Of a stretch of 63,706 nt of DNA, positions 54,485 through 56,635 are shown piece by piece; position 1 is the first letter of the stretch, and every line of letters begins with the position of its first letter. The notes under the pieces were generated by a model. That model searched no databases and was not told where the DNA came from. It saw only the letters and a list, made by a program, of their open reading frames with translations. Position numbers and translations under genes: made by a program. The DNA comes from Girardia tigrina (taxonomy: Eukaryota), in contig MQRK01233049.1 in NCBI GenBank assembly GCA_001938485.1, positions 6,200 through 69,905 of the forward strand. The letters are read 5' to 3'.

Positions 54485-55848
54485 ATGAATGACAATATGT
54501 CGTCCATAAATATGCCTATGAATATGAAGATAGAAGACAATATGCCTACGAATTCGATGATCAAACCAATCAATAATGCGTCCACTTACGACCCGAAGAA
54601 ACTCTATGAAAGTCGCCGAAGATATCGAAATTTCCGCTTCAGTATACCACTGACGGATTTCGAGGCGCGAAAAGAAGTCTTAATGAATGCATGGGAGAAA
54701 AATACTCTATTCATGCTTGGCCAGCAAGAGTTGTCACAAAGCGGGCACTCTCATTTGGAGTTATTTTGTACTATGAATGGAGCTGTAAGATGTTTTTTGG
54801 TGAAAAAGTAATTTTTTAACCGGTTTTTTCTTACAGCTATGACGTATGGATCAGCGCGCCGCCAACTGGAGGTGCCCTTCGTCACCGGTGTCCCAGAAGA
54901 GGACATCCAAGCGGCTATTAGTTACGTCAGCAAAGATGATACCCGGGTTGAGGGGGGTATTAAAATATATTTAGGCCAAAGAAAATATGTAACTTTAGAA
55001 AGTGTCTGGCCGAGCGTGCTTTGGTCAGAGACTTCTAAAGAAGCAATGGCTATAATTAAAACATCAAAACCTGAGCTGTTTTTTTAAAACGAAAGCAGCT
55101 CGCAGAGTTTTGAATGCGAATTCGGTCACAAGACCGAATCAGTGAATAAAATATTTTCTGAGGAACCAATAAATGTATGGGACGATAAAACCCATATATT
55201 TATTGGTCCCACTGGAATCGGCAAAACTAATTTTGCCCTCCATCACTTTAAAAAGGCCGTGCATGTCACAAATATGCAAAATTTCGGCCGCATATCCGAT
55301 GACGCGAACATAACCGATGGAATCGTAATAGATGACATCGAGTTATCGAAGCTGTCAGCGCATAAACTACTCCAGCTCGTAGATAAAGAATACGAGCATG
55401 GAGTAGATGTAAAATATGGTTACGGGTATATCCCGGCCATGTTACCCCGCATCGTGTGCCTGAATATTTCTGGAGTATTTCTGGCCCAAGGAATGCTCCA
55501 CACTATTGCGACAGGCAATAATGCGACGTATAAAAATTCAACTTGGGGCTTAGTAAAAAGATATTCCTCGATAAAAAGAAATTGCAAGCCGATACCTTAA
55601 AGGAACCTCAGCTTGCTGAACCGCTTGTCGACCCTGAGATGTGGACAGACACTCAGGTCGACATATACGACGAAGCGAATCGGATAGGCATGAAATCTCC
55701 GATCCCACAACAATATGAGTCATTTCTCAAATAGCTCGAGAGAAAAAAGAAGCGGGAAATTGCGCAATTCATTGACCTGATGAAATTAGTCGATGAAAGA
55801 AAACCAAAGTGGAATGTTGACTTAGATGACAGTCAAATTGATATGTGA
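54485..55848 (+). pseudogene. Rep copy R7 (clade B), near full length, frameshifted; intron 54785-54836
   Basis: All HUH and SF3 motifs are present across frames. Confidence 0.85.
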
Positions 55849-55972
55849 TTTTGTGATAATATTTTTATTTAACAGTTTTTGATTTTTATTGTTATTGTTT
55901 TTGCGGTTAAAAATTATAGTTTTATAAAGACTTTGACTTAATAACTATTTTTCATATAATCAAGTTTTATTA

Positions 55973-56635
55973 TTATTTAAATACCCTATTTAAAATATTT
56001 AATTTAACTTTATAGAATAAGTGCACATACTCATAAACATTTACACCAACATTAAGTGTTAAAACTTTAGTACAATGTATATAGACCGAACGATTTAAGA
56101 GAGGTTGTTTAATTTCGGAAGTGTACTTCCAAATAGGCTGATTATTAGTTAAAAAGATTGGCATTCGATCCATTTTTACTTTCTGTTTATGTTTCTGACT
56201 AATCTTGACACAGGGACTTGATTCACAAATTAATTTCATATAATCAGCATTACGAACATCTAAAATTATTTCTTCGCTAATGGCACAATTTTTTCCTACT
56301 AAATCTTCGAAACAAAACTCGGAATTTAGGTGCATTGTGGTAAAGAAACCGCAATTAAGTCCGGCCGTCCAAATTTGGATAAAGAAAGTTTTTCCTGCAT
56401 TTGAGACTCCGTCAATAATTACCGTTGTTGTTTTTCCTGCTCGTAGTAGTAGAACCGTACCCAACGCAAGAATGCGATAATTGACTCTATCAGTTTCTTC
56501 ATTAACCGTAACATTACCACTACTGTGATATTTCCTAAATAATAACCGGTGATCAGGATTGATAATAAACTCGTTAGAATCCAAAAAATCGATAACAAAC
56601 TTTTCAAGAACATCGCAAACGTAGCTTTTAATCAT
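55973..56635 (-). CDS. NS1/E1-like SF3 helicase copy H2, intact (~220 aa), helicase domain only
   Basis: Walker A IIDGVSNAGKT, FCFEDLVGKNCAISEE (Walker B EE), K.ICES...VKISQKHK (B'), PIFLTNN (motif C), PLLNR. Start MIKSYV chosen by alignment with H3 MLESYV; the open frame extends to 56722. Confidence 0.85.
   Translation of the reverse strand: MIKSYVCDVLEKFVIDFLDSNEFIINPDHRLLFRKYHSSGNVTVNEETDRVNYRILALGTVLLLRAGKTTTVIIDGVSNAGKTFFIQIWTAGLNCGFFTTMHLNSEFCFEDLVGKNCAISEEIILDVRNADYMKLICESSPCVKISQKHKQKVKMDRMPIFLTNNQPIWKYTSEIKQPLLNRSVYIHCTKVLTLNVGVNVYEYVHLFYKVKLNILNRVFK

Follow-up and report, generated by a model that had tools for sequence, protein, structure and literature searches.

The window analysed here, a stretch of 63,706 nucleotides from Girardia tigrina, is AT-rich animal DNA in which viral fragments are piled up between about 43.9 and 63.2 kb, the pile being interrupted by MULE and mariner pieces. 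In view of these interruptions, the viral copies are considered to be integrated and of some age, and the array is one of integrated, partly nested and mostly capsid-less copies. The gene of principal interest, H2, codes for a stand-alone SF3 helicase and converges on a CRESS-type Rep gene, R7:

54485-55848, plus strand: R7, CRESS-type Rep and partner of H2, with FRFSIP, HSHLE, YVSK and Walker A/B/C
55849-55972, no strand: convergent R7/H2 spacer, 124 bp, AT-rich, taking in the 3' ends of both genes, with AATAAA on the helicase strand only
55973-56635, minus strand: H2, gene for a stand-alone SF3 helicase of 220 aa, read as a single exon
56387-56410, minus strand: H2 Walker A
56270-56287, minus strand: H2 Walker B
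56186-56206, minus strand: H2 B'
56141-56158, minus strand: H2 motif C
56087-56101, minus strand: H2 arginine finger

H2 thus has the full set of SF3 motor motifs (Walker A, B, B', C and arginine finger) with SF3 spacing and fold, and helicase families sharing only 24-36% identity show no variation in Walker A, B, C or the arginine finger. The original prediction had allowed only ~70 residues before Walker A and no HUH domain; the start ATG proves to lie 75 codons ahead of Walker A, and HUH is indeed absent. Pfam matches are to Parvo_NS1 (E 2.4e-5), DUF5906 (4.6e-6) and PPV_E1_C (7e-4). The AlphaFold2 model that had been proposed as a check is confident (pLDDT 80.5) and adopts the SF3 fold; the nearest solved structures by profile and fold are AAV Rep40/68, followed by B19 NS1 and then E1, and the top Foldseek rows are Rep40-ITR melting complexes. 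Matches in BFVD are to full hama- and densoviral NS1 proteins, with bidensovirus NS1 at ranks 10, 35 and 40. The distance from motif C to the arginine finger is 17 residues in the helicase vs 23 in AAV, a six-residue gap, and at the post-sensor-1 site the H2 model has a plain loop and helix with no beta-hairpin. A similarly short spacing of 17-18 residues is found in 24 of the 31 long NS1-like relatives that were scored (44 examined). The partner R7 is broken, with a stop near 55085 and frameshifts near 55470-55650, and a short GT-AG intron is predicted near 54785-54836.

Three further Rep/helicase pairs lie in the window:

45721-47125, plus strand: R1, Rep clade A, spliced, with a frameshift near the 3' end
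47240-47539, minus strand: H1, helicase 3' fragment only, residues about 122-220
59146-60612, plus strand: R9, Rep clade A, broken
60729-61387, minus strand: H3, full-length helicase with a frameshift
61691-62992, plus strand: R10, Rep clade B, 5' truncated at a hairpin
63126-63146, minus strand: helicase stub of about 6 codons (last codons and stop)

All four pairs are convergent. Stop-to-stop spacers measure 114 (R1/H1), 124 (R7/H2), 116 (R9/H3) and 133 bp (R10/stub) at 14-19% GC, in keeping with the ~115-135 bp AT-rich spacers described at the outset. The 12-mer GAGTTCAATAAA, said to be shared by three of the spacers, was located at 47167, 60658 and 63043 and nowhere else in the window, the R7/H2 spacer lacking it. 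Among the 16 distinct spacers of loci L001-L030, an exact copy occurs in one, the window's own R9/H3, and a copy within two mismatches in four, while AATAAA is present in 10; the 12-mer is therefore a poly(A)-signal context and not a family hallmark.

The 1.43-Gb assembly contains 125 helicase matches. A convergent Rep lies within 89-188 nt at 25 of the 30 best helicase loci, a count in which two loci are the window's own and at least three repeat other rows; of the remaining five, three have too little sequence, one runs into N and one is without a Rep. The pairing thus recurs well beyond the window. At nine loci with divergent helicases (24-39% identity), a Rep lies within 2 kb at six, tail-to-tail at one and in tandem at five, and no Rep hit was obtained at the other three. 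With the divergent families mostly in tandem, co-occurrence of Rep and helicase is general and the tail-to-tail order is the H2 family's own, so that the arrangement first noticed is real in the window and at the best loci but is a family trait.

Several other features were recorded in and around the array. A Rep copy at 48606-49095 resumes at 51600 past a MULE transposase (50088-51350, Pfam MULE), the nested region spanning 48606-52140, and a Rep piece (49155-49653) sits inside the left part of the MULE. A second, PEVE-closer family is represented by a Rep piece at 57742-58050, and a Ser/Thr/Pro/Lys-rich frame at 58078-58716 matches (52%) a frame between Rep and helicase in locus L035; as the fragments at 57742-58716 are closer to PEVE, different virus families appear to share one array. 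A host voltage-gated potassium (Kv) channel gene with BTB_2 and Ion_trans exons (33430-34407 and 41096-41644, minus strand) lies about 2 kb from the viral array, and an LSM-domain frame containing one N is present at 14630-14941 on the minus strand.

The upstream boundary of the helicase

Directly upstream of the H2 ATG lies a non-coding repeat:

56650-56891, no strand: inner part of an inverted terminal repeat (ITR)

This stretch folds with z -9.9 and shares 69% identity with the ITR of locus L111 over 250 nt. A 24-bp inverted repeat (about 56685-56708 / 56775-56798) flanks an AT-rich palindrome and a TATA-like run, and the terminal hairpin is missing from the H2 unit. At L111, the region upstream of the helicase has an inverted copy on the far side of the capsid gene, with 99% identity over 221 nt.

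This boundary bears on whether H2 might be no more than the final exon, or a truncated leftover, of the NS1 of an ordinary densovirus, a reading that draws on the Parvo_NS1 match and on the BFVD matches to full NS1 proteins but that we consider very improbable. The 330 nt upstream of H2 are ITR, with stops in all three frames past a 29-codon run-on, and at five loci the ITR inner box is separated from the helicase start by 240-375 nt. An ATG is positioned 74-75 codons before Walker A at 19 of the 26 loci with a matched Walker A, the other seven being broken or truncated there. Because the helicase starts a few tens of bases inside the non-coding ITR, there is no room for a nuclease exon, and upstream exons on H2 are very unlikely. 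The prediction of a stand-alone, nuclease-less helicase thus stands, anchored by a conserved ATG just inside the ITR.

Relatives of the helicase tell against an NS1 remnant as well. In a HMMER search of 1.84 billion proteins, the top matches are Met-initiated and 220-285 aa long, and the PEVE protein together with six proteins of 220-285 aa from unrelated sources begin with Met at the same domain boundary. The short relatives and the genome's own families form one clade with no long member (support 0.96) and longer NS1-like proteins outside it, in a FastTree analysis of 150 residues from best hits 1-70, hits that had been chosen with the same profile. A search for longer forms of the helicase, albeit a weak one, found none.

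The whole element, its lineages and an overprinted frame

Additional features of the array and comparison with other loci define the layout of the complete element:

52252-52315, no strand: complete T-shaped terminal hairpin, stem and two palindromic arms, DNA fold -22.6 kcal/mol, z -4.7; the same at genome termini
61616-61670, no strand: partial T-shaped hairpin between the ITR of H3 and R10
43944-45549, minus strand: broken remnant of a PLA2-bearing VP1u gene, diverging from R1, with a tblastn match to the 611-aa open frame of loci L044/L062
44228-44413: mariner fragment (Transposase_1) inside the VP1u remnant

The element reads ITR-helicase><Rep | PLA2-VP1u, parvovirus-fold capsid-ITR, over about 6 kb. 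Its identical ITRs end in an AAV-like T-shaped hairpin that occurs in both arm orders (flip and flop), and these hairpins are strong, with z of -4 to -6. Instead of a circular genome with a stem-loop origin, the loci present identical ITRs with flip/flop hairpins at both ends, and we infer from the integrated copies that the genome is linear. No terminal nicking site was identified on the element. At the helicase end, termini of five loci (L003, L004, L013, L024 and L138) all have the same arm order, while the capsid end has both; the single order at the helicase end, in this small sample, could mean asymmetric resolution.

The 611-aa VP1u frame of L044/L062 carries a Pfam PLA2 domain (PF08398), and the capsid has a parvovirus-type single jelly-roll fold, of which a weak model (mean pLDDT 37.6) supports the core only. 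Capsid matches in the genome number 25, 11 of them the H2 family's, vs 125 for the helicase and at least 151 for Rep; with capsid matches so much rarer, most integrated units appear to be half-genomes carrying a helicase without a capsid. A capsid possibly also occurs in another kind of element at L113 (G000:C228548, 1178-3926), where a frame of 606 aa shows 26-27% similarity to the capsid and has a zinc-finger-like frame ahead of it, 10 kb contain no hit to Rep or helicase, and a nearby frame may resemble a polinton-type capsid.

The Rep of the family is a CRESS-type HUH-SF3 protein, nearest the PCV2 Rep and Cressdnaviricota Rep clusters, and it retains a full, invariant helicase motif set as well as its own nuclease motifs. 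An H profile matches the Rep helicase with a probability of only 4%; judged by sequence comparison, H and Rep are separate genes of evidently different ancestry. Collectively, these features make it highly probable that H2 comes from an endogenised linear ssDNA virus of the PEVE/PIVE type, in which it is the helicase gene.

The helicase is under purifying selection, with a median dN/dS of 0.10 (120 pairs among 16 distinct open copies, four duplicates having been dropped). As predicted, it is more conserved than Rep, with identities of 93% vs 81% within Rep clade A (21 pairs) and 88% vs 66% between clades (14 pairs). The helicase had also been said to pair with both Rep clades, which is true; however, the helicase itself splits into the same two clades as Rep, both trees giving support of 100/99 or better in a sample in which clade B is represented by two units, and distances in the two genes are strongly correlated (Mantel rho 0.90, p 0.0002, nine units with an open Rep segment). 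The clades are therefore best read as two virus lineages and not as one helicase shared between Reps. Within clade A, synonymous divergence of the helicase falls well below that of its linked Rep (pS 0.34 vs 0.80).

Part of this lower divergence is explained by a second frame that is overprinted on the helicase:

56419-56613, minus strand: overprinted +1 frame in H2, with a hydrophobic N-terminus, 64 aa here

In H2 this frame stops early, at codon 72, whereas 14 of 15 family copies keep it open between codon 5-8 and codon 102-103 (about 95 aa), with a hydrophobic start. It is also open in L031, in L032 and in the PEVE gene, and codon shuffles returned p values of 0.0005-0.011 in all five genes tested. 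Synonymous differences per codon are 0.10-0.29 over codons 1-100 vs 0.30-0.46 beyond. By analogy with AAV MAAP, the product is a putative small membrane protein. The lower synonymous divergence of the helicase extends outside the overprinted part, for which a more recent exchange of the terminal module may be responsible.

Since a conserved +1 frame over codons 8-102 depresses synonymous change, one might suppose that the helicase is a dead motor retained only for the overprinted frame. This is scarcely credible, as the catalytic half lies outside the overlap and there differs by 4-6% at amino acids vs 38-44% at synonymous sites, and as the catalytic motifs are invariant across distant families.

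What the helicase may do

The best explanation as a whole, to which we assign a probability of roughly 55%, is a PEVE/PIVE-type virus in which H serves as the packaging motor. Replication would follow the rolling-hairpin scheme known from parvovirus biology, the CRESS Rep serving to nick and resolve the hairpins, and an ITR promoter would drive transcription of H. The helicase would then assemble as an ATP-driven ring and pump a single strand into a pre-formed parvovirus-type capsid, as do AAV Rep40/52, and the need for packaging would be the reason that an NS1 helicase was retained once another Rep had taken over initiation.

The packaging role taken by itself, proposed by analogy, we would put at even odds; it is favoured because, of the needs that a CRESS Rep would leave unmet, packaging is the simplest. 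Parvovirus capsids are described in PMC12713660 as being filled post-assembly by the helicase, and encapsidation by AAV without Rep40/52 as down 20-fold; of the prediction methods used in that paper, only AlphaFold3 reproduced the contact between AAV Rep and VP3. Against this role stands the absence from H of the post-sensor-1 hairpin with which AAV Rep docks on the capsid pore, an objection softened by the prevalence of the same short spacing among the long NS1-like relatives. The comparison with AAV Rep52/40 made in the original prediction survives insofar as Rep40 is the nearest solved structure; the arrangement, a separate opposite-strand gene whose ancestry differs from that of Rep, is closer in logic to bidnavirus NS1.

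It is possible, although we think it doubtful, that in the same virus H is instead the replicative helicase, melting the GC-rich T hairpin and driving strand displacement in the manner of E1 or large T, with the CRESS Rep acting mainly as a nickase. The absent capsid-docking hairpin would suit such a role, E1 and SV40 T also being without it according to PMC12713660, as would the Foldseek matches to ITR melting complexes and the strength of the terminal hairpins. A second fork helicase would, however, be redundant beside a Rep with its full motif set, and an origin-binding domain is absent from H. Units with Rep, H and ITR are far more numerous than those bearing a capsid, which could also favour a replicative function, but the position of H between Rep and the ITR would lead to its passive carriage in half-genomes.

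The abundance of many clustered, nested copies, most of them capsid-less, raises the further idea that the Rep-H-ITR unit is mainly an autonomous transposon-like replicon, which is how Repbase and Liu et al. 2011 (PMC3198968) read PIVE, and that the arrays arise by Rep-mediated re-integration, with H serving that cycle; Liu et al. term PIVE a virus-like transposon with TIRs. We regard this as improbable: neighbouring copies are 60-83% identical at the DNA level and belong to different lineages, which fits repeated capture from a diverse virus population better than bursts of a single element, and the same family has capsid-bearing copies. Should H be the packaging motor, then replication and packaging, which are united in NS1 and in AAV Rep, would be separated here, given that nicking and the second motor reside in separate genes of separate ancestry.

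Comparison with known systems

The pairing of helicase and Rep is itself not new, having been published for the planarian element PEVE and for PIVE, its integrated relative (Liu et al. 2011, PMC3198968). In that paper the stand-alone PEVE helicase NP_476522.1 appears with PIVE_1p next to parvoviral NS1, and the large-segment Rep with PIVE_3p (text and Fig. S7 labels). H2 is a full-length homologue of NP_476522.1 (30% over 203 aa, E 7e-31) and falls in the same clade. Another helicase family in the Girardia tigrina genome is 72% identical to the PEVE helicase, and the Rep beside it is homologous to the CRESS Rep of the window type. As here, PEVE/PIVE have a stand-alone 220-230 aa helicase, a separate circovirus-like Rep, inverted repeats and integrated copies, and the 165-aa 'putative capsid protein' of PEVE aligns with the C-terminal part of our capsid family. 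The H2 family is nonetheless a distinct lineage. In the PEVE segment (L080) the helicase follows a capsid fragment between inverted repeats, whereas in the H2 family it converges on Rep beside one ITR; the ITR sequence of L111 also differs from the inverted repeats of L080.

The PEVE segment L080 (1-1911) is bounded on either side by inverted repeats of about 170 nt and contains, ahead of the helicase, the C-terminal part of the capsid frame alone, and L032 has a longer capsid frame in the same position; the PEVE 'segments' may reflect an internal repeat or rearrangement. The divergent L034 (G000:C248302, 1090-7863) has a PLA2 frame on the minus strand, then a helicase and an unspliced Rep in tandem on the plus strand, with about six short coiled-coil-like frames of 110-150 aa downstream. 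L031 (G000:C102149, 604-2614) carries a 244-aa helicase in tandem behind an unspliced Rep of 411 aa, with a near helicase relative in public contigs (P0003).

No PEVE/PIVE description of a full PLA2-VP1u, parvovirus-fold capsid, T hairpins in two orders or an overprinted frame was found in a search that extended to neither the original 2002 PEVE papers nor the Repbase entry. Likewise, in literature from which most subscription papers were absent, we found no account of a virus combining a CRESS Rep, a separate NS1-type helicase, a PLA2 parvovirus capsid and T-hairpin ITRs, and term searches of the accessible text of PMC11071296, PMC13055364, PMC5013282 and 10.1101/551184 returned no such hybrid. 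The hybrid design as a whole thus seems undescribed, though the gene pair is known from flatworm viruses; the pair has been on record since the PEVE entries, yet unclassified, and the loci assembled here give it a coherent design.

PEVE and its relatives probably constitute an unrecognised family-level lineage of linear ssDNA viruses, with a parvovirus virion, AAV-like hairpin telomeres, a CRESS Rep initiator, a split-off NS1-type helicase as dedicated motor and an overprinted membrane protein. In such a lineage the nuclease of NS1 would have been replaced in 'bidnavirus style' for a second time and independently, or else the lineage would be a living model of the transition that leads from circular CRESS viruses to parvoviruses with hairpin ends; it would also show a CRESS Rep operating at hairpin termini. 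The design crosses two virus phyla, its capsid, telomeres and motor being parvoviral and its initiator CRESS. According to Kazlauskas 2019 (PMC6668415), parvoviruses have been proposed to derive from CRESS viruses, the parvoviral Rep having lost joining activity; a virus that pairs hairpin telomeres with a CRESS Rep is directly relevant to this transition.

With Cressdnaviricota (circo- and gemini-like Reps), the element shares Rep HUH motifs I-III, a DD-type Walker B, a short intron, converging genes and a small AT-rich intergenic region, but it points to a linear hairpin-ended genome, a parvovirus capsid and a second helicase gene. With Parvoviridae (AAV/Dependoparvovirus and the ambisense densoviruses), it shares a linear layout, identical ITRs, a T hairpin with flip/flop, a genome of about 6 kb, a PLA2 VP1u, a jelly-roll capsid and an NS1-type SF3 helicase. 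The overprinted small hydrophobic frame is MAAP/SAT-like by analogy. Unlike Parvoviridae, the element has no NS1 with fused HUH and helicase, its initiator being CRESS-type; unlike AAV Rep40/52, its nuclease-less helicase is not a shorter rep product, and it differs from the AAV motor at the post-sensor-1 site.

Bidnaviruses retained a stand-alone S3H and a parvovirus-derived capsid when PolB replaced the nuclease, as described in PMC4061559 and PMC6668415. The element resembles Bidnaviridae in this combination and in having its nuclease replaced by a foreign replication gene. The replacement here is a CRESS Rep and apparently not a protein-primed PolB like theirs, for which there is no room between the ITRs of L111, and the element has hairpin termini, PLA2 and a single segment. 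The comparison raises the question of why bidnaviruses and these viruses both kept the helicase.
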